From contig OZ260661.1 in NCBI GenBank assembly GCA_965285935.1, forward strand, positions 102,610,001 to 102,674,000: 64,000 nucleotides of DNA, in the 5' to 3' direction. The DNA comes from Ophelia neglecta. Taxonomy: Eukaryota. The position numbers and the translations under genes are program-made. The notes under the pieces were generated by a model, which made no database searches, had not been told where the DNA came from, and worked only from the letters and a program-made list of their open reading frames with translations. Shown here in pieces: positions 8,207 to 60,400 of the stretch. The stretch's first letter is position 1; each line of letters begins with the position of its first letter.

Positions 8207-9560
8207 TGGCTGGGGTCTGTGGCTGCTGGTTCTCATTAATGCATGGTGTTTGTGTGTGGGTCTTTGGCTGCTGGTTCTCATTAATGCATGGTGTGTGTGT
8301 GGGTCTTTGCCGCTGGCTCTCATTAATGCATGGTGTGTGTGTGGGTCTTTGCCGCTGGTTCTCATTAATGCATGGTGTGTGTGGGTCTTTGGCTGCTGGT
8401 TCTCATTAATGCATGGTGTGTGTGTGTGGGTCTTTGGCTGCTGGTTCTCATTAATGCATGGTGTGTGTGTGGGTCTTTGGCTGCTGGTTCTCATTAATGC
8501 ATGGTGCGTGTGTGGTTCTTTGCTGCTGGTTCTCATTAATGCATGGTGTGTGGGGGGGTCTGTGGCTGCTGGTTCTCATTAATGCATGGTGTGTGTGTGG
8601 GTCTTTGCTGCTGGTTCTCATTAATGCATGGTGTGTGTGTGGGTCTTTGGCTGCTGGTTCTCATTAATGCATGGTGTGTGTTTGGGTCTCAGGCTGCTGG
8701 TTCTCATTAATGCCTGGTATGTGTGTGGGTCTTTTGCTGCTGGTTCTCTTTAATAAATGATGTGTGTGTGGGTCTTAGGCTGCTGGTTCTCATTAATGCA
8801 TGGTGTGTGTGTGGTTCTCAGGCTGCTGGTTCTCATTAATGCCTGGTATGTGTGTGGGACTTTTGCTGCTGGTTCTCTTTAATGCATGATGTGTGTGGGT
8901 CTTAGGCTGCTGGTTCTCATTAATGCATGATGTGTGTGTGGGTCTTAGGCTGCTGGTTCTCATTAATGCATGGTGTGTGTGTGGGTCTTTGGCTGCTGGT
9001 TCTCATTAATGCATGGTGCGTGTGTGGTTCTTTGCTGCTGGTTCTCATTAATGCATGGTGTGTGGGGGGGTCTGTGGCTGCTGGTTCTCATTAATGCATG
9101 GTGTGTGTGTGGGTCTTTGCTGCTGGTTCTCATTAATGCATGGTGTGTGTGTGGGTCTTTGGCTGCTGGTTCTCATTAATGCATGGTGTGTGTTTGGGTC
9201 TCAGGCTGCTGGTTCTCATTAATGCCTGGTATGTGTGTGGGTCTTTTGCTGCTGGTTCTCTTTAATAAATGATGTGTGTGTGGGTCTTAGGCTGCTGGTT
9301 CTCATTAATGCATGGTGTGTGTGTGGTTCTCAGGCTGCTGGTTCTCATTAATGCCTGGTATGTGTGTGGGACTTTTGCTGCTGGTTCTCTTTAATGCATG
9401 ATGTGTGTGGGTCTTAGGCTGCTGGTTCTCATTAATGCATGATGTGTGTGTGGGTCTTAGGCTGCTGGTTCTCATTAATGCCTGGTGTGTGTGTGGGTCT
9501 TTGGGTGCTGGTTCTCATAAACGCATGGTGTGTGTGTGTGGGTCTTTGGCTGCTTGTTCT
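8207..9560. repeat. Minisatellite, ~42-bp unit (ggctgctggttctcattaatgcatggtgtgtgtgtgggtcttt), ~32 copies, with a 512-bp higher-order duplication
   Basis: Direct tandem repetition. The ORFs at 8458 and 8970 are identical and offset by 512 nt. Confidence 0.97.
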
Positions 9561-9770
9561 CTAGTTTTCGGACTGATTTAATGGGGAATATTTTGGATTC
9601 ATGAATTTGTTTTTTCTGTCGGTATGCACTCCCATTTTCTTTTATTGCAATTGATATCAAACTGGCTTTTTTTTAACCAATTCCTTTGCAACTTACAGTA
9701 AGCGAGCTGTGAATTGATATACACGGATTTTTTTGTCTGCTGGTTATATATATATACATACATTTCACAG

Positions 9771-21608: not shown

Positions 21609-22991
21609 TTACGCACTGATATACCCCCTTCCTTGGTCATGCCTGTAGAAGTTGTTGAAGTTCGCCACTACCACGGGCACGGGTAAAGCAATCGTCAGTA
21701 CTCCTGCGATCACACATAGGGCACCGACTAATTTGCCCCAGACACCAACAGGTGTGACATCGCCATAGCCCACGGTCGTCATGGTCACGATGGCCCACCA
21801 AAAAGCTCCTGGTATGGAAGTCAGCTGGGTGTTTTTTTCTCCGGCTTCTGCGTAATAGGCTGCGGAACTGAATATCACCATGGCAACGATGAGGAAGAAG
21901 AAGAACATGCCTAACTCGCGCAGGCTCGTCTTTATAGTCAATCCAAGAATGCGTAATCCTGCTGAATGCTTTGACAGTTTGAATACTCGGAAGACTCGTA
22001 GCACGCGTATGAATATGAACGATCCACTCTTTTTGGCATTCTCACAGTTTCCTGCAGTTGACACTGTGATTAATGTAATAAAATAGGGCAAAATTGCCAA
22101 AATATCAAATATATTCATAATGTTTTTGCAAAAAGTGAACTTCGAAGGCGTTGCCACCAGTCGAAGAATAAATTCAATTGTAAACCACGAAACACAGACC
22201 GATTCAATCATAAAGAACACGTCATTGTAGTTTGGCTCCAGGTGGTAACTTAGCCCATTGTCCGATGTAACATTTACACATTGATCTCGAACAAATGTAG
22301 GCAACGTCTCTAGGCAAAAGTTCACAATTGATATAAGAATGCAGGTGACAGATATAATCGCAAACACTCTGGCGGCTCGCGAGCTGTCCGGCTCCTCGCA
22401 AAATAGGTACAATTTCCTTTGCCAGTCCTTTTTGGGGAGTATTTTCACCTCCTCCATAAGGAATCCTTCTTTCTCTTTGTAGTCGTGTATAGTTTCTTCG
22501 CCAAGCTGGTAAAACTCGAGTTCCTCGAGGAAAATGTCCTCGGGGACCTCGATCGGTCTCCGCAATCGGCCCCCGCTCTGATAGTAATACAGAATCGCTT
22601 GGAACGAGGGCCGATGTCGGTCGATGAAGAACTCATTTCGTCGAGCGTCCCAGAACTGTTTCCGCTTCATCGGGTCACCCAGGAGTGTTTCCGGAAAGCG
22701 GTTGAGCGTGCGCAGTTGTGTCTCGTAGCGTTGGCCACTGACGTTGATGATGACTCTCTGGCAACCGGCCTTGATGCAGTCGTGATGCTGGTCCAGGATT
22801 TCCAGACAGGGCGGGGGTTGTAACTCCACCTGGTGCTGAGGGGTGCCACCACCACTCCCCACATTCTCGTATTTACTGCCGCGAGAAGACAAAGAGACAC
22901 GACCATTAGAAAAATTAGTTAAAGGAATCAGCGTGCCCTCAGGGCCAACAATAGACTTACGGTACTGTAGCAGAGCTGCGTTTATAGCCAT
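21609..22991 (-). CDS. KCNA: Shaker/Kv1-family voltage-gated potassium channel alpha subunit, copy A (460 aa, intronless CDS)
   Basis: T1 domain (RVIINVSGQRYETQLRTLNRFPETLLGD...YYYQSGGRLRRP), S1-S6, S4 RVLRVFRVFKLSKHS, pore TMTTVGYGD, S6 gate ALPVPVVV. The ATG at 22991 (cacaagATGG) matches the paralog start MAINAALLQYRKS. The track start at 23024 is a non-ATG extension. Confidence 0.96.
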   Translation of the reverse strand: MAINAALLQYRKSIVGPEGTLIPLTNFSNGRVSLSSRGSKYENVGSGGGTPQHQVELQPPPCLEILDQHHDCIKAGCQRVIINVSGQRYETQLRTLNRFPETLLGDPMKRKQFWDARRNEFFIDRHRPSFQAILYYYQSGGRLRRPIEVPEDIFLEELEFYQLGEETIHDYKEKEGFLMEEVKILPKKDWQRKLYLFCEEPDSSRAARVFAIISVTCILISIVNFCLETLPTFVRDQCVNVTSDNGLSYHLEPNYNDVFFMIESVCVSWFTIEFILRLVATPSKFTFCKNIMNIFDILAILPYFITLITVSTAGNCENAKKSGSFIFIRVLRVFRVFKLSKHSAGLRILGLTIKTSLRELGMFFFFLIVAMVIFSSAAYYAEAGEKNTQLTSIPGAFWWAIVTMTTVGYGDVTPVGVWGKLVGALCVIAGVLTIALPVPVVVANFNNFYRHDQGRGYISA

Positions 22992-31590: not shown

Positions 31591-32970
31591 TTATGCACTA
31601 ATATACCCCCTTCCACTTTCATGCCTGTAGAAGTTGTTGAAGTTCGCCACTACCACGGGCACGGGTAAAGCAATCGTCAGTACTCCTGCGATCACACATA
31701 GGGCACCGACTAATTTGCCCCAAACACCAACAGGTGTGACATCACCATAGCCCACTGTCGTCATGGTCACGATGGCCCACCAAAAAGCTCCTGGTATGGA
31801 AGTCAGCTGGGTGTTCTCTTCTCCGGCTTCTGCGTAATAGGCTGCGGAACTGAATATCACCATGGCAACGATGAGGAAGAAGAAGAACATGCCTAACTCG
31901 CGCAGGCTCGTCTTTATAGTCAATCCAAGAATGCGTAATCCTGCTGAATGCTTTGACAGTTTGAATACTCGGAAGACTCGTAGCACGCGTATGAATATGA
32001 ACGATCCACTCTTTTTGGCATTCTCACAGTTTCCTGCAGTTGACACTGTGATTAATATAATAAAATAGGGCAAAATTGCCATCATATCAAATATATTCAT
32101 GATGTTTTTGCAAAAAGTGAATTTCGAAGGCGTTGCCACCAGTCGAAGAATAAATTCAATTGTAAACCACGACACGCAGACCGATTCAATCATAAAGAAC
32201 ACGTCATTGTAGTTTGGCTCCTGACGATAACTCAGCCCATTGTCCGATGTAACATTAATACAATGCGATCGTTCAAATGTAGGCAACGTCTCTAGGCAAA
32301 AGTTCACAATTGATATAAGAATGCAGATGACAGATATAATCGCAAACACTCTGGCAGCTCGCGAGCTGTCCGGCTCCTCGCAGAACAGGTACACTTTTCG
32401 TTGCCACTCTTTTTTGGGAAGTATTTTCACCTCCTCCATAAGGAATCCCTCATTCTCCTTGAAATCGTGTATCGTTTCTTCGCTCAGTTGGTAGAACTCG
32501 AGTTCTTCGAGGAAAATGTCCTCGGGGACCTCGATCGGTCTCCGCAATCGGCCCCCGCTCTGATAGTAATACAGAATCGCTTGGAACGAGGGCCGATGTC
32601 GGTCGATGAAGAACTCATTTCGTCGAGCGTCCCAGAACTGTTTCCGCTTCATCGGGTCACCCAGGAGTGTTTCCGGAAAGCGGTTGAGCGTGCGCAGTTG
32701 TGTCTCGTAGCGTTGGCCACTGACGTTGATGATGACTCTCTGGCAACCGGCCTTGATGCAGTCGTGATGCTGGTCCAGGATTTCCAGGCAGGGCGGGGGT
32801 TGTAACTCCACCTGGTGCTGAGGGGTACCACCACCACTCCCCACATTCTCGTATTTACTGCCGCGAGACAAGGATACAGGGCCATTAGAAAAATGAGATA
32901 AAGGAATCAGCGTGCCCTCAGGGCCTGCAATAGACTTACGGTACTGCAGCAGAGCTGCGTTTATCGCCAT
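31591..32970 (-). CDS. KCNA: Shaker/Kv1-family voltage-gated potassium channel alpha subunit, copy B (459 aa, intronless CDS)
   Basis: Same domain architecture as copy A (T1, S1-S6, TVGYGD, PVP). Uninterrupted ORF from an ATG in cacaagATGG context to TAA. Confidence 0.96.
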   Translation of the reverse strand: MAINAALLQYRKSIAGPEGTLIPLSHFSNGPVSLSRGSKYENVGSGGGTPQHQVELQPPPCLEILDQHHDCIKAGCQRVIINVSGQRYETQLRTLNRFPETLLGDPMKRKQFWDARRNEFFIDRHRPSFQAILYYYQSGGRLRRPIEVPEDIFLEELEFYQLSEETIHDFKENEGFLMEEVKILPKKEWQRKVYLFCEEPDSSRAARVFAIISVICILISIVNFCLETLPTFERSHCINVTSDNGLSYRQEPNYNDVFFMIESVCVSWFTIEFILRLVATPSKFTFCKNIMNIFDMMAILPYFIILITVSTAGNCENAKKSGSFIFIRVLRVFRVFKLSKHSAGLRILGLTIKTSLRELGMFFFFLIVAMVIFSSAAYYAEAGEENTQLTSIPGAFWWAIVTMTTVGYGDVTPVGVWGKLVGALCVIAGVLTIALPVPVVVANFNNFYRHESGRGYISA

Positions 32971-44900: not shown

Positions 44901-46403
44901 TCAACGTAGTTATCTGTGCTTGGTAAACACATCACACTAATTGTCTTCCCCGTGAGTGTTTTCTCCTGCCATCAGTAGTTTGATGAAAGGGACAATTTGG
45001 CCTAATAAATGTCTCATTAGCGTCAACGCAGCTAGTGTAGATGATAAATGGACTGGATTTCTAGATCCATAACGCCACGTGTATTTGCAATACATATCAT
45101 GTACATGCTTGGAACTGAGAACAGTTTCCCAGCAATGGGGTTGCTACGCTGTTTTCAGCCAACCCGCAACAGTAATTTCGTGACAAAACCGCTTATTTGA
45201 TACCATGAATTATGTCCTTGTGACTGTTGTTATAACAGCAATAGAGTACCAGCTCTGAATTGGCGTTGAAATCACGCTGGGCAAAGGTTTCCATTTGAGT
45301 TTCATTTCCGCTTTGTTCTTTGCAGATAATAGACTATCTGCTCTGCTGAAGATCCCCCGAGAAGGTCTACTCAGAGGCGGCATTGCTTGTCAACCTATTG
45401 ACGACAAAGCCATCAGACGAGAGTAGCATTGAATATTGCGTGATGCTGCCAAAACAAACCGAATGCAATCCTTCACTAAAAGAAAGAATCAATGTCAACA
45501 ACTTGTAAAACGAACGACTATTCATCGAAATAGACAAGACTTCGCTAATATTCATGCATGTTCTTGGCCACACGACAAATGATGAAATGAAAAATGCAAA
45601 TGAGTCGCGTTAGTTCGCTAAGTTTGATTGGATGGCCATGGGTACAGGACGTGAGATAGATAGTTTTAATGCCTGGTTAAACCTGACATAGGTGCTCTGA
45701 TACGTATTATGTCTGAGCGCTATTGATTCAAAGCACACTTTCTTGAGGTTTTGGCCCAGCCTGTGTGTGTACAAGGGCGCCACAGGAAGATATCTCCCCA
45801 TCAACTTTCTCAGATTATGTAACGACTACAATGTTCTGAATATCCCGCCATTTACCACCAATCCATTGTGAGCCTTAGAAGAACCGACGTTTTTTTTTCA
45901 CTCCAATGATATCAAAGTGATTAGACAGATTCCATCGGGCGTCAGAAGCGATTCATATCTGCAAGAAAATCGCCCACCTCATGCAAAATGATGTATACAT
46001 TTGCATATAAACTTCAAGGAAAAAGCCAAAAGAACCCCATGGTTGGAACTGTTCTTCCAATGCAAAATCGATTAGAAGCTGCTGTAACACTCGTCAAAGA
46101 TAAAAACTACAAAGGCACAGCCAGCTTTTTAAATGAATGACACAATTATTCATTCCAGACAATATCTTTATATTTAAAATACATCTTTTTATCATTTTGC
46201 TCATTACACATGCGAAGATCAGCAAACCGATGTTTCTCACATTGAAAAGTCGGTGTTTGACCCATTTTGGAACTTATGCTGTCTTTTTCTAAGAATAGAA
46301 TAATATTGTCATTTCATAACTACTATAAACATTCATGAGCAAGGGTTTTGCAAATGAACTTCCTAGCCATTACCAAACCAGCCAGGCCGGTGTTGTCGAT
46401 ATG

Positions 46404-46972
46404 AACTAGAAGACAGCCCAGGCCCCTGGTATTTCCTGAGGGTTTACTCGAAGACAGCCCAGGCCCCTGGTATTTCCCGAGTTTGTACTAAAAGGCAGCC
46501 CATCCCCCTGGTATTTCCCGAGTGTGTACCAAAAGGCAGCCCAGGCCCCCTGGTATTTCATCAGTGTGAACTAGAAGACAGCCCAGGCCCCTGGTATTTC
46601 CCGAGAGTGTACTAGAAGACAGCCCAGGCCCCTGGTATTTCCCGAGTGTGTACCAAAAGGCAGCCCAGGCCCCCTGGTATTTCATCAGTGTGAACTAGAA
46701 GACAGCCCAGGCCCCTGGTATTTCCCGAGAGTGTACTAGAAGACAGCCCAGGCCCCTGGTATTTCCCGAGAGTGTACTAGAAGACAGCCCAGGCCCCTGG
46801 TATTTCCCGAGAGTGTACTAGAAGACAGCCCAGGCCCCTGGTATTTCCCGAGAGTGTACTAGAAGGCAGCCCAGGCCCCTGGTATTTCCCGAGAGTGTAC
46901 TAGAAGAGAGCCCAGGCCTCTGGTATTTCCCGAGAGTGTACTAGAAGACAGCCCAGGTCCCTGGTATTTCCT
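46404..46972. repeat. Minisatellite, ~41-bp unit (actagaagacagcccaggcccctggtatttcccgagagtgt), ~14 copies
   Basis: Direct tandem repetition (period 41 at 46741/46782). A variant 3-unit block repeats at 124-nt spacing (46527/46651). Confidence 0.96.
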
Positions 46973-48949
46973 GAGGATAACAATTACTGACCATTGGCAT
47001 GTCTTCGAGGATGGTGTTTTCTGTGACCCACGCCACATAATCCCCTTCACACGACATACGACACCTGCCAGTAACAATAAAAACGCTCTTTACTACCCGG
47101 CCTCTTTACCCCAAATAAAATATCCTGTTTGCCTGCCAATTCGATCTACCATTACCAGGGCCGTGCACGCACACATCGGTGCCGTCAATTCGGCTTCTCA
47201 CTAAGCGTAGTAAATGATGGCCTATACTAGCCAGGACGCTGGCAAATAACATGGCACAAATACGTTTTTATTCTACTGACACGTAGATTCCATTAGGTTT
47301 CTAGTTAATTCTGCTACTGTGGCACGATAATTAGCGTTCGATAAAAAGAAAAGAAACCCAAATGGCTTGACTCGAACAAACCAATGCTCCATTTTGGAGG
47401 CGGTAAGTGTTGTTATCAATCTCTTTTCCACACGCCATTGTTTGTACTGTTTGGTGATTTGTCTTGTTGCGTTTCAGCCAATTGTTTGTTCACTAGAAAT
47501 GGTGGTGATTTGTATAAATCTGCCCCCCCCCCCTTTCCCCAAAAAAAGGCCAGTAAATGCGATGGGTCACTGCAATTAGACCACCGATTACTTCAAGCAT
47601 CGTGCAAACTACACATACTGTCTACAGATTAGTGGCTTCCAAGTAAACATTACCAACTTGGTGTCATGTGTCTGCATTTCGCTTAATACTGATACTCAAA
47701 TTCCGCATCCCAAGCCCCGAGAATCGACTGATGCATGCGACTACGCATGCGGGTTACACTAGAGTGCAGGAATCTGCCGACATCAAGAGTCACCAGGTCG
47801 GGAACAGCGGATGGTACACGCAGACGACATTGATTGAGCCGGGGCCCGCCTGCTCAAGACTCCCCGCTGTATGAATTCAGACAACTCGACAAAAATACCA
47901 CGTGTGTTGTCCGACCCAAAAGGCCTTGGACAGAACGAAAGATATGTATGACCAAACTTGGTAATAAACTGTCTGCATTTTATTTCATAATAAAGCTTGT
48001 AGACGCCAGCATGGTATTTTTTCTATGGAGATGGATGTTGATTGCATACAGACCTAGATCAATGGGGTTTGGCCCAGGTTTCCTTACTTAAAGACAGCTC
48101 GTTAGCTAGCTGCTGTAGGCTCGTTCTTTTCCATATAAACGACGTAAGCATGCTCTACTGTGGGCGTTTTGCCTTATTCTACAGTATCGCGGTGGCATAG
48201 CTGGCCATACCTCACCAGCAGCCGGATCTGTACGCTTCCTCTTGAAAACAGCCACAATGTCTAGACTGGTCTGGAGTCACCTCAATCCTGCGGTACCCCC
48301 AAGGACATTTGTACACTGTGCTTTATTAATATGAGCATGGCATCAGTCGCAATATGATACAACAGAAGATCGGAACTGTCTCTTTACTTTGATGGAATTG
48401 CTGTGTCTCTTTATCTTGAAGGAAACCAAGCAATCATAAAACAGGAGTGTGAGGCTTCTACGCTAGGACTATCAATTTGGTGAGACAGATACCACGCCAG
48501 TCCGTGAAGTACTAACGTAGACTCGGAGTAGTATCGGTGTGTATGGCATTTTACTCTTTACTTGGTCCATAACGACAGGCCAAGTAGTTAACAAAAAGTT
48601 ATCACTTATTCAGTGCGATGTCCAAGATACAGTCGAGCAATCAATGCGAACGAACCTCAAACAGGAACAATATGCTGCATAAATACAGACGTGGACTTGA
48701 ACAGCCTACCACAGAAATGCGATTGGTTACCAGTATGCAAATCGGTAACTGGTTCAAACTCCCTAAACACTGTTTGTATGCTACGGATATTATAATGCAA
48801 AGAGAAAGGCTGACCACCAATGTGTATTATTTTATTCTAGACATACAAACAGAGGCAGAGTTAAGAGTACCCTCTACGTATGCTGTTCAGATATAAATGA
48901 AACGATATAGATCTGAGGCCTATAACTTCATGCAAATGCGTACACAGAT

Positions 48950-57099: not shown

Positions 57100-57482
57100 G
57101 TGAAGTAGACCCACGGATGGAGAAGTAGACCTACTCATGGAGAAGTAAACTCCTGCATGGAGAAGTAGACTCCTGCATGGAGAAGTAGACTCACGCATAG
57201 TGAAGTAGACCGAAGCATGGAGAAGTAGGCCCATGCTCGGGGAAGTAGACTTCTGAATGGAAAAGTAGACTCCTACATGGAGAAGTAGACCCACGCATAG
57301 TGAAGAAGGCCTATGCATGGAGAAGTAGACCCATGCATGGAGAAGAAGACCCACGCATGGAGAAGTAGGCCCATGCATGGAGAAGTAGGCCCATGGTTGG
57401 AGAAGTAGGCCCCTGCATGGAGAAATAGCACATGTTTGGAGATGTAGACCATTCTTGGCGAAGTAGGCCCATGAATGGAGAA
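57100..57482. repeat. Minisatellite, 20-bp unit (ggagaagtagacccatgcat), ~19 degenerate copies
   Basis: agaagtag recurs every 20 nt. Confidence 0.95.
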
Positions 57483-60400
57483 GGACACCTATACACGAAC
57501 TTCCAGGAAAAGAAGACAATGTGACTTTATTGAGTAATTACGTCACCAGTTCTAAAGAAACAGGTGTGAATACCCGGCAGACAGAATAAATTCAGTATTA
57601 ATAAATATTACATTTAATCGGTCGAAATCATCAGCGGCAGATGCAGACACACAGACATCATGCAAATTAGCTTGTAATGACGTCCCGACTAACATAACAA
57701 ATTTTATTTTGGCGAAAAAAAAGCCCTTTCTCAGGCCGTTTTGTTGTTTGTTTGGGTATTACTGCACTGTCCTGGTTTGACCTCTCGCTAAGAACTGATG
57801 GTGTGGCAAGCTAATGTAGTGGCAGGGTTAGGGTTTTCCACACATTCAACGTTCGATTGCAATTCTTTAGAGCCTATATCTAACTTGACCTTCACTGGGC
57901 CTTTACTCACCTCGTACATTTTCGCACCTGGGCACCGTAGGGTGTCGGCAGCCTGCGGAGACTAAGAGGTCTAATGAACGGTCGTTTGGCAACCCAGAGG
58001 TAAAAAATAACTCGCCTACGGCTCTCTATTCATCCCTCTGAGTAGCCGCAAAAACCGTCCAATAACCCCTTACGTATGATTAGGACAACTGATAACATCA
58101 AATTTGTATCAGTATAAGTCATGGAGAACCAGTCCAATGTAATAACTTTCCGAGTGTTTCGAGATGTCATCCATTCTTTTTGCGTGTGTTTGCAGTTAAC
58201 AGCGACGTTTCCGAGACGGGGGCATACATGTTTATAATAAAACGACCTACAGGCCTACCGAACAAAGGTGCGTAAATAAGTATTGGCTGTCTTTTTGGAA
58301 GCAATAAGACCTTTTATAATATTGGACTTCAGCAATTGATATTTGTATAAATATTACTTGCTCAGGGCCAATAGTGTTGCAATATAGTTCGTCGCCAATC
58401 CAATATTTGTATAATAACGCAAGACATATTATTTAGGAACTGGGGGAAGGCAATAAAGTTGAATCATCGTCAAGAAAATATATCGGAAGGGCCAAGAGTG
58501 TCAATCGTAATAAACTAACTCGGAAATTATTGTCCGTCTCGAATGGTAGCAGGAAAAATATGCTGTCGTAGTTTGGTAATAGACTACTGCTTAACCAAAC
58601 AATTTGGTGTGGGATAAGGGAAGTCGCTATTCGCATAAAATTGCCAGGTTTGCAGTTATTTACAGGAAAGCTAGTGATCGTGAAGAAACAGTTGACTGAA
58701 GTTCCTGCTAAGCCAAAACAGATTCATTCCAAAATGATAGGTTTTACTGGCAAATGAATGGAACTCCTTGTGTCTTCGATTTTGAAACTCCACGCTTGGA
58801 TCCAATATTGGATGTTTTTGCTGCATCAAACCAGAAAAATGAACATCTAATCATGGTTCTTCACTTAACCAAGAGAGTATTGAAACACAAAATACAGTTA
58901 TGAATATAGGAATCTCCAATAAGGCCCCAGGGATGGTTATTACTAAGGAACCGGAAGTAATGGGGCAGGAAATGGATATTTTAAACTGATTCGTATACTA
59001 ACATAATGTATATCTTCATTATTTAGGCCCTACTAGATTCTTTCAGTTCGGAATAATACTAACACTTCTTAAATAATACTAACACTTCTGACTAACGTCA
59101 GATTCTGTCCATCGCTGCAGATTCGGGTCTCTGTTATGCTGTTCATTGCCATATTCTTTATAGGAATATGTCAAATGGAGGAACTCGCATGTTATCAACT
59201 CCTCACATTTATTTAGAATATACTATATTAATGTTATGCCTCGGTCATGGTTTTTAAAGCATCACCCCACGATTGCTTTCAGCACGAGGATGTCGTATTG
59301 GCCATGAATAGATGTCTGACAATGAATATATATGTAGCTATTCGGCCAGGCTGAAAACAACTACAACATGCAAGCAGCCGTTAAAAGTTAGAAGAGGCAG
59401 ATTGTTTTCATCGACAAATTACGATGAAGTTATAGGTAAGTTATAGGTAAGTTACACGCACTTGGAGGATTGACGCCCTTCTCTTCTTGGGGGCTACTGC
59501 GTGAATAATCTTCATTTATGGGTTTATACAGTCCCTAGGGTGCTGGACTACAAAGGCAAGTGGCTATGTATGAGGATAATTAATGTCCCCGGGGAAGAAA
59601 ACATATGCATGCCTCGTCGCGGCAAGACTCATTACTCCAAAACCTCCAGCTTTGAATGGCATGAATGCCAAAAACAAATTATTTTTGAAATGAAAATGTA
59701 TCATAATGTGCTTCGGTAGAATTGCACACTCTTTTATTAACAAAACAATTTGCCCATTAAATTGATGTACAGATAGCGGCTTATCCAAGCAATGAGGTAC
59801 ATACGAGCGGCTGAAGGAAAGAGGCCTTGGCTAGGGTAAACAATGGAAGTCATTAAGGGCAGACGCTATTTGGCTGAGAGGAATATTGTCAGGAAAGACA
59901 GGCATATTCCCTAAGCTAAACGCGGATAACTGGCGTTAATTTGAAATTTTCGCCTAAGGCTTGCGGTGTTGTTAGTATCGTAAAATCTAAATTACCCTTC
60001 ACGAAATGATTAGCCTTTAAATGAAAGACCTCGCCACTGGAAAAATGGGTTAATGACTGGGAGTAAGATTATACTCAGAGGGCAACAACAAAAGTCCCAA
60101 GTCAATACCAACATGTCCCCGGGGTTAACAGTTCTGAGTGGGCGGGGGGAGGGCGGGGGGGGGGGGGGGTTGTGATAAACCACTTTTGACATCCTGATTG
60201 GCATGCAATGCTTAGACATGATACAAAACTCAGTGGTTATGCCTATAAATATTGTCTTTTTCACGGCAATGTAGTCAACACAACAGTCGCAATTAATCAT
60301 GAAATTTCGATCATGGAATATATGGAAAATGCCAATGTTAAAATAAAAGAAAGGTAAGCACTTCGATCAAATTCATCTGGTAGCTATGGTAACAAAGAGA

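Follow-up and report, generated by a model that had tools for sequence, protein, structure and literature searches.

A conserved annelid Kv1 paralogue with three S4 arginines and a cysteine pair, present as two tandem copies in Ophelia neglecta

Introduction

Voltage-gated potassium channels of the Shaker family do not all carry the same number of arginines in their voltage sensors. Kv1 channels are described as moving four arginines and Kv2, Kv3 and Kv4 channels as moving three, Kv4 being a normal channel that holds three arginines above the plug when open (review, PMC13095418). What the outermost gating arginine (R1) contributes was addressed by Skerritt and Campbell, who studied Kv4, a channel without R1. 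With an arginine introduced at this site in Kv4.3 (V287R), the slope factor fell to 11.6 mV (14.5 mV without it), V1/2 moved by +37 mV and the apparent charge rose by 25%. R1 accounts for some but not all of the difference from Shaker; at rest, the field was proposed to fall across the first remaining arginine (PMC2582947).

Natural Shakers with a reduced S4 occur in hydrozoans (jShak1). Among annelid channels, leech LKv1 is reportedly a delayed rectifier. It has a V50 of +8.3 mV and sits on a long branch (PMC1208917), and four leech Shakers have been listed, by homology only (PMC6054404). According to Jiang et al. (2025), molluscs, annelids and platyhelminths duplicated Kv1 independently; the available main text of that study holds nothing on the S4 charge or the cysteines of these genes, and its supplements may hold sequences (10.1101/2025.09.21.677649). 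A literature search that included the cnidarian Shaker paper PMC3519636 found no passage on the S4 of jShak1 in the text available.

Here, a 64-kb stretch of the O. neglecta genome (contig OZ260661.1, forward strand, positions 102,610,001 to 102,674,000; hereafter the window) is compared with these systems. A preliminary description of the same DNA had drawn attention to two channels that lack R1.

Results

Two tandem Kv1 genes

By sequence, the window holds a conserved annelid Shaker (Kv1) paralogue that has recently been duplicated in tandem (Table 1). The copies are identical at 436 of 458 amino acids, with a dS of 0.13 and a dN/dS of 0.20 (A versus B), and are surrounded by a duplicated block of about 10 kb. 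An assembly artefact or sequencing error can be dismissed, since the intergenic patches of this block are just 80-85% alike and flank depth is even: in contigs from three runs of one sample (maybe the assembly's own), both copies and their flanks appear at similar depth, and among the matches listed neither S4 shows an alternative letter. As for transcripts, RNA run X1 gave 0 contigs on the 64-kb stretch, a result that carries no weight either way, and the run search returned no RNA run of the host organism.

Differences between the copies are patchy, with one change across codons 61-150, six across codons 301-450 and 40 across codons 151-300, a distribution that may reflect gene conversion. 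The amino-acid changes lie mostly in S1-S3 and the S1-S2 loop. Elsewhere in the window, tandem repeat arrays at 8213-9561, 46402-46975 and 57100-57483, with units of about 43, 41 and 20 bases, explain the repetitive open reading frames.

Table 1. Coordinates of the two Kv1 genes and their features in the window
Feature	Position	Strand	Remarks
Kv1 gene copy A, intronless CDS, 460 aa	21609..22991	(-)	single open frame; best PDB match Shaker, E 9.6e-148
Kv1 gene copy B, intronless CDS, 459 aa	31591..32970	(-)	single open frame; tandem duplicate of A
Extreme N terminus, copy A	22950-22991	(-)	like Capitella and Dimorphilus orthologues; hydrophobic, then basic
C-x4-C motif, clade-typical	22761..22778	(-)	copy A; immediately before T1
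Kv1-type T1 assembly domain	22458..22760	(-)	matches Kv1.1-1.3 T1 chains
Cys238, S1-S2 loop, copy A	22278..22280	(-)	candidate disulfide partner; N-glycosylation sequon two residues on; start of predicted beta hairpin
S2 countercharges and charge-transfer Phe (Shaker E283, F290, E293 sites)	22173..22205	(-)	intact; I287 site Val as in Kv4
S3 Asp (Shaker D316 site)	22104..22106	(-)	intact
Cys316, tip of S3-S4 hairpin, copy A	22044..22046	(-)	candidate disulfide partner; 13 residues before first S4 Arg
Two linker lysines	22029..22034	(-)	first one six residues above R1 site; not conserved
S4, copy A	21963..22019	(-)	three Arg, K5, Lys at R6; Ile at R1 site (22014-22016)
K+ selectivity filter TTVGYGD	21759..21779	(-)	copy A; intact
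S6 gate PVPVVV	21666..21683	(-)	copy A; sixth-position Val kept; canonical Shaker PVPVIV
Short C-terminal end	21612-21650	(-)	near-invariant across orthologues
Cys237, copy B	32260-32262	(-)	counterpart of A Cys238
Cys315, copy B	32026-32028	(-)	counterpart of A Cys316
S4, copy B	31945..32001	(-)	protein sequence identical to A; Ile at R1 site (31996-31998)

Full-length Kv1 chains in the PDB match the window protein at E values of 1e-140 or better, and Kv4 chains at about 1e-75 to 1e-79. An AlphaFold model of the membrane part (mean pLDDT 86.8) has Kv1.3, Shaker and Kv1.2 as its best fold matches. The T1 domain of copy A is identical to that of the genome's own Shaker at 61 of 90 positions (68%) and to that of its own Kv4 at 34 of 88; neither a Kv4-type T1 nor an overall Kv4 affinity is found in the window genes, and the true Kv4 of this genome is a separate locus (L011). 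Ahead of T1, the C-x4-C motif, itself preceded by His-Asp, recurs in 49/49 window-type proteins with a T1 domain, in 68/114 proteins of the sister type described below and in 0/54 canonical Shakers; it is a possible metal or redox site. The N terminus of copy A is a possible inactivation peptide.

A three-arginine S4 shared among annelids

The S4 register was anchored on the F-K-L-S lysine (K5) against Drosophila Shaker (PDB) and the canonical Shaker of the genome (L003). In this register, both copies carry arginines at R2-R4 and lysines at K5 and R6, preceded by Gly at R0 and Ile at R1 and followed by Ala at K7. The preliminary description had reported the absence of R1 from both channels, the retention of R2-R4 and K5, the replacement of R6 by Lys and of K7 by Ala, and intact S2 Glu/Phe/Glu and S3 Asp countercharges, and on each of these points the alignment bears it out. 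Four arginines above K5 are typical of studied bilaterian Kv1 channels, though not universal; the window genes have three, which makes them less likely orthologues of canonical Shaker; in this genome that orthologue is L003. In human Kv4.2 (PDB), the R0 site is Gly, the R1 site Val and the K7 site Gln.

To see how far this S4 extends, the best 120 of 3809 matches from a protein search with a window gene were scored. The R1 site is non-basic in 63 of them (Ile 42, Val 15, Leu 3, and Ala, Ser and Thr 1 each), the rest being two four-Arg proteins with the cysteines described below and 55 canonical Shakers. Named three-Arg matches come from Capitella, Dimorphilus, Ridgeia, Helobdella, Owenia and Intoshia, all annelids where named. 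Because the same S4 is conserved in these 63 of the best 120 homologues, the pattern is not chance. Within the best 120, Lys occupies R6 in 65/65 window-type proteins, Gly occupies R0 in 53/65 and Gln occupies K7 in 56/65, which leaves Ala at K7 as the only near-private S4 residue of the window genes. The 63 three-Arg orthologues all keep the E283, F290, E293 and D316 sites and the filter (one with Asp at E283), and most have Val at the I287 site (54/63) and the gate PVPVVV (57/63). A private mutation can be set aside, an R1-less S4 being common among annelid and sister-paralogue matches. The preliminary description had allowed that this S4 variant might be widespread and characterised; widespread it is, and characterised by analogy, in Kv4.

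Other Kv1 genes and channel loci

A genome search returned at least 39 matches and 30 loci, among them five Kv1 genes. Four of these are without R1, namely the window pair, L004 (Ala) and L005 (Met), the latter two lying about 410-430 kb from the window genes on the same contig. A search with L004 (best 120 of 2541 matches) added 119 new proteins, in which the R1 site is Ala in 92 and Ser in 27. They come from annelids, molluscs and flatworms, and also from a nemertean and a brachiopod. R1-less Kv1-like proteins that do not have the cysteines also exist among 133 scorable representatives (50% clustering), one of them named from the ctenophore Bolinopsis; R1 loss therefore recurs.

L004 (L004:733-2259, + strand; G000:C1, ~103.061-103.062 Mb) is a pan-spiralian sister paralogue. 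Besides Ala or Ser at R1 (119/119), this type has Thr at the Shaker I237 site (115/115 scored), Thr, Ser or Asn at the I287 site (119/119) and, in 112 proteins, the gate PVPIIT. Thr at 287 is the Na+-channel residue tied to faster gating (PMC9545881), and L004-type proteins look like better candidates for a gating-pore or fast-gating channel than the window genes. The fifth Kv1 gene, L005 (G000:C1, ~103.043 Mb, - strand), forms a long branch within the cysteine clade and combines Met at R1 with the gate PTPIIV and an altered S4-S5 linker; it could be a regulatory subunit. Farther afield, L006-L030 (contigs C5, C7, C8, C9, C12 and C1) make up a large expansion of divergent Kv2/Kv3-like genes, many of them with reduced S4 charge and with clusters on C12 and C7.

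Substitution or indel

How the fourth arginine disappeared was addressed by comparing a no-gap model with the removal of each triplet in turn, at zero gap cost. Against the genome's own Shaker, a deletion model fits best in 65/65 window-type and 119/119 sister-type proteins, and against a four-Arg Lingula protein in 64/65 and 119/119. The mean gain (own Shaker / Lingula) is 10.7 / 15.9 for the window type and 22.8 / 25.9 for the sister type, the deletion and no-gap scores over Shaker being 48.4 versus 37.7 and 59.8 versus 37.0, respectively. For the window type, the gain over Shaker is no larger than a usual gap cost, which makes the case modest. For the sister type, which follows Shaker as far as the first Arg and from there is shorter by a triplet, the alignments make a firm case.

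Spacing tells a similar story: the distance from the S3-S4 loop cysteine to K5 is 22 residues in 53/65 window-type and 116/119 sister-type proteins, and 25-26 in 3/3 four-Arg members. The best-fitting deleted triplet varies by subgroup, being the second in some and the third or fourth in others. A single clade of the 24 three-Arg rows in the tree described below is not rejected (AU p 0.40), and the best tree leaves the base open. These alignments suggest that the fourth Arg probably went via a three-residue indel in the R-x-x repeat and not by Arg-to-Ile substitution. The earlier statement that R1 is Ile thus stands as a structural register; by descent, the indel looks likelier, and the residue is probably not a mutated R1.

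A cysteine pair and the clade that carries it

Both window genes have one extra cysteine in the S1-S2 loop and one at the tip of the S3-S4 hairpin. Over the two best-120 sets, the S1-S2 cysteine is present in 182/182 proteins that have the S3-S4 cysteine and a parsable loop (2 more were unparsed), and either cysteine occurs in 0/55 canonical Shakers of the window-gene search. Their positions are largely fixed amid variable neighbouring residues, at +10 from the S1-end Glu in 167 of 184 scored proteins and at +14 from the S3 Pro in 177. In the AlphaFold model, one cysteine starts the S1-S2 beta hairpin and the other lies at a three-residue turn between S3 and the long S4 helix. Since two extracellular cysteines are conserved across five phyla, they are candidates for a disulfide, and a bond between the two loops is probable on this pattern.

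A wider sample suggests some caution. Of 150 representatives (50% clustering), 17 were without an S4 anchor and 133 were scored: 17 have both cysteines and three Arg; 10 have the S1-S2 cysteine without its S3-S4 partner and keep R1; 8 have a cysteine in the S3-S4 region and an unparsed S1-S2 loop; 1 has both out of register; and 9 are R1-less with the pair unscored. The 10 with the S1-S2 cysteine alone are the reason for caution on the bond. The distance from the S3-S4 loop cysteine to the first Arg, in turn, is constant at 13 residues in three-Arg and two four-Arg members, which would fit a tether fixing the resting position of S4.

For the tree, 46 rows were hand-picked from about 450 proteins and 312 columns were used, with both loops and S4 removed (LG+G4, one long outgroup). 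The 27 cysteine rows fall on one side of a branch (99/98) adjoining canonical Shaker, and the cysteine clade and the canonical Shakers share a branch (99/90) with respect to the Kv4 outgroup, a single long row under LG+G4. An earlier FastTree analysis did not recover the cysteine clade with support. As the cysteine rows form one clade, the co-occurrence of the pair is a single inherited event and not many. Leech members include Helobdella and Hirudo verbana Shaker3; no record named LKv1 was present among the 30 proteins of the cluster look-ups. Literature searches, thin on subscription papers, showed no Kv1 S1-S2/S3-S4 disulfide in lophotrochozoans among 20 of 60 listings, and nothing on such a disulfide among all 8 listings for annelid Shaker voltage sensors.

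Discussion

A probable Kv4-like sensor in a Kv1 channel

By analogy with Kv4, the window genes most likely encode homomer-competent, normal depolarisation-activated Kv1 channels with a three-click sensor, a shorter stroke, less gating charge, a somewhat shallower curve and no appreciable gating-pore leak. The fourth Arg would have dropped out through an indel of three residues within the R-x-x repeat. When the channel is open, K5 would occupy the charge-transfer centre, just as it does in Kv1 and Kv4; at rest, the hydrophobic plug would be filled by the first Arg that is left and not by the Ile, as proposed for Kv4.3. A bond between the two cysteines would join the tip of S3-S4 to the S1-S2 loop and may keep the sensor from moving further inward.

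A lower gating charge is likely because Kv4.2 shares the layout and reversion in Kv4.3 steepens the curve. The preliminary description had expected this, together with a shallow or shifted voltage dependence; it is a fair inference by analogy, favoured by the R1 add-back in Kv4.3 and tempered by the finding that R1 does not explain the whole difference from Shaker. The missing Arg alone is unsurprising, since Kv2, Kv3 and Kv4 move three and the Kv4.3 reversion exists. Less familiar is the cysteine-pair Kv1 clade with its probable disulfide; R1 loss itself is common and has a studied analogue.

Alternative readings

A more elaborate proposal makes the disulfide the organising element: in an old second spiralian Shaker branch, a native bond would staple the S1-S2 loop and the S3-S4 hairpin together and set the resting position of a short three-Arg S4, the first Arg would plug the gating pore, and extracellular redox could tune gating. 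We regard this as a tentative idea that is possible but doubtful as a whole.

Gate substitutions mark silent Kv subunits. If the window genes encoded regulatory subunits, they would work only in heteromers with a canonical Shaker, shifting its voltage dependence, and their sensor need not be complete. Silent Kv1 subunits are described in cnidarians (PMC3519636), a canonical partner (L003) is available in the genome and the gate is altered in two of the sister paralogues (PVPIIT and PTPIIV); however, neither a degenerate S6 gate nor a degenerate filter is seen in the window genes, which have PVPVVV and TTVGYGD, and the conserved gate with its sixth Val, the intact filter and a T1 domain so close to that of Shaker make this reading unlikely.

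Somewhat less likely still is a natural gating-pore channel, in which strong hyperpolarisation would bring the Gly (R0)/Ile (R1) gap to the plug and let cations leak through the sensor. Shaker leaks when R1 is changed to Ala, Cys, His, Ser or Val (PMC10651576, PMC2443804, PMC3361024), and a double gap suffices (PMC10651576, PMC2443804). Gly with Ile or Val at R0 and R1 is accordingly not proven tight, because Shaker R362V passes omega current (PMC10651576, PMC2443804) and A359G/R362S has a larger omega conductance than R362C (PMC3982104); the prevalent Gly at R0 and the smaller Val at the I287 site point the same way. Yet Kv4.2, which combines Gly and Val at R0 and R1 with Val at the I287 site, is absent from the natural gating pores named: a 2014 review, in the part available, names only N.at-Kv3.2 and Hv1, an argument from silence (PMC3982104). 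The R1 site is moreover bulky and aliphatic in 60/63 orthologues. The natural case, N.at-Kv3.2, is without both R1 and R3 and has altered countercharges, and its marks, a small or polar residue at R1 and at a second Arg site plus altered countercharges, are not found in the window genes.

It is highly improbable that a Kv4 gene supplied this S4, by chimera formation or gene conversion, in an annelid ancestor. Without gaps, 20 of 29 positions of the S4 region agree with the genome's own Kv4 and 17 of 29 with its own Shaker, and the Gly at R0 and, among orthologues, the Gln at K7 are likewise shared with Kv4. The difference amounts to three residues, however; T1, S1, S3 and S5 all resemble Shaker more (S2 ties), and the sister paralogue keeps a Shaker-like run ahead of the first Arg. 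The R1-less Kv1-like proteins outside the clade, one of them from Bolinopsis, therefore make convergence simpler than Kv4 copying. Just as hard to sustain is the alternative, raised in the preliminary description against its own reading, that a linker lysine (AKKSG) stands in for R1 and keeps gating charge Shaker-like: the predicted S4 helix does run up through these lysines, the first in three-residue register, but this lysine lies about two helical turns (six residues) beyond the R1 site, and among the 63 orthologues that keep the same S4, the linker is without basic residues in 6 and has a single one in 22.

Meaning

Of potential importance is that a large share of the annelid, mollusc and flatworm Kv1 repertoire, including leech and snail model neurons, falls in the cysteine-pair clade, which is set apart from textbook Shaker by the length of its sensor and by a disulfide that probably links two loops. 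The clade offers a natural comparison of three and four arginines within one Kv1 background, and a native tether would constrain the travel range of S4. If the disulfide proposal described above holds true, four-Arg brachiopod members and sister paralogues with a polar plug would form a natural series linking stroke length, gating charge and omega leak.

Comparison with known channels

Shaker, Kv1.2 and Kv1.3, the best matches in sequence and fold, share with the window genes the T1 domain, the six-helix fold, the countercharges, the filter and the gate. The window genes differ from them in having three instead of four Arg above K5, Lys at R6 and a non-basic K7, Val at the I287 site, extra cysteines in the S1-S2 and S3-S4 loops and a short C terminus without the ETDV end of the canonical matches.

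In the sensor itself, Kv4.2 and Kv4.3 are like the window genes: Gly at R0, an aliphatic R1, three Arg, K5, a basic R6, a non-basic K7 and Val at the I287 site. The rest of the window protein is Kv1, unlike Kv4, and its first S2 countercharge is Glu where Kv4 has Asp. Kv4 also has two S1-S2 cysteines in one loop and none at the S3-S4 tip, which again sets it apart from the window genes.

Leech LKv1 (Weiss et al. 1999, J Neurobiol 38:287) is a divergent annelid Kv1 that has been expressed, and a possible member of the cysteine-pair clade. The flatworm channel N.at-Kv3.2 exemplifies, as here, natural R1 loss in a spiralian Shaker-family channel. It is a Kv3 with His at R1, Gly at R3 and altered countercharges that acts as an inward rectifier (PMC3982104, PMC2443804), whereas the window genes keep R2-R4 and their countercharges.
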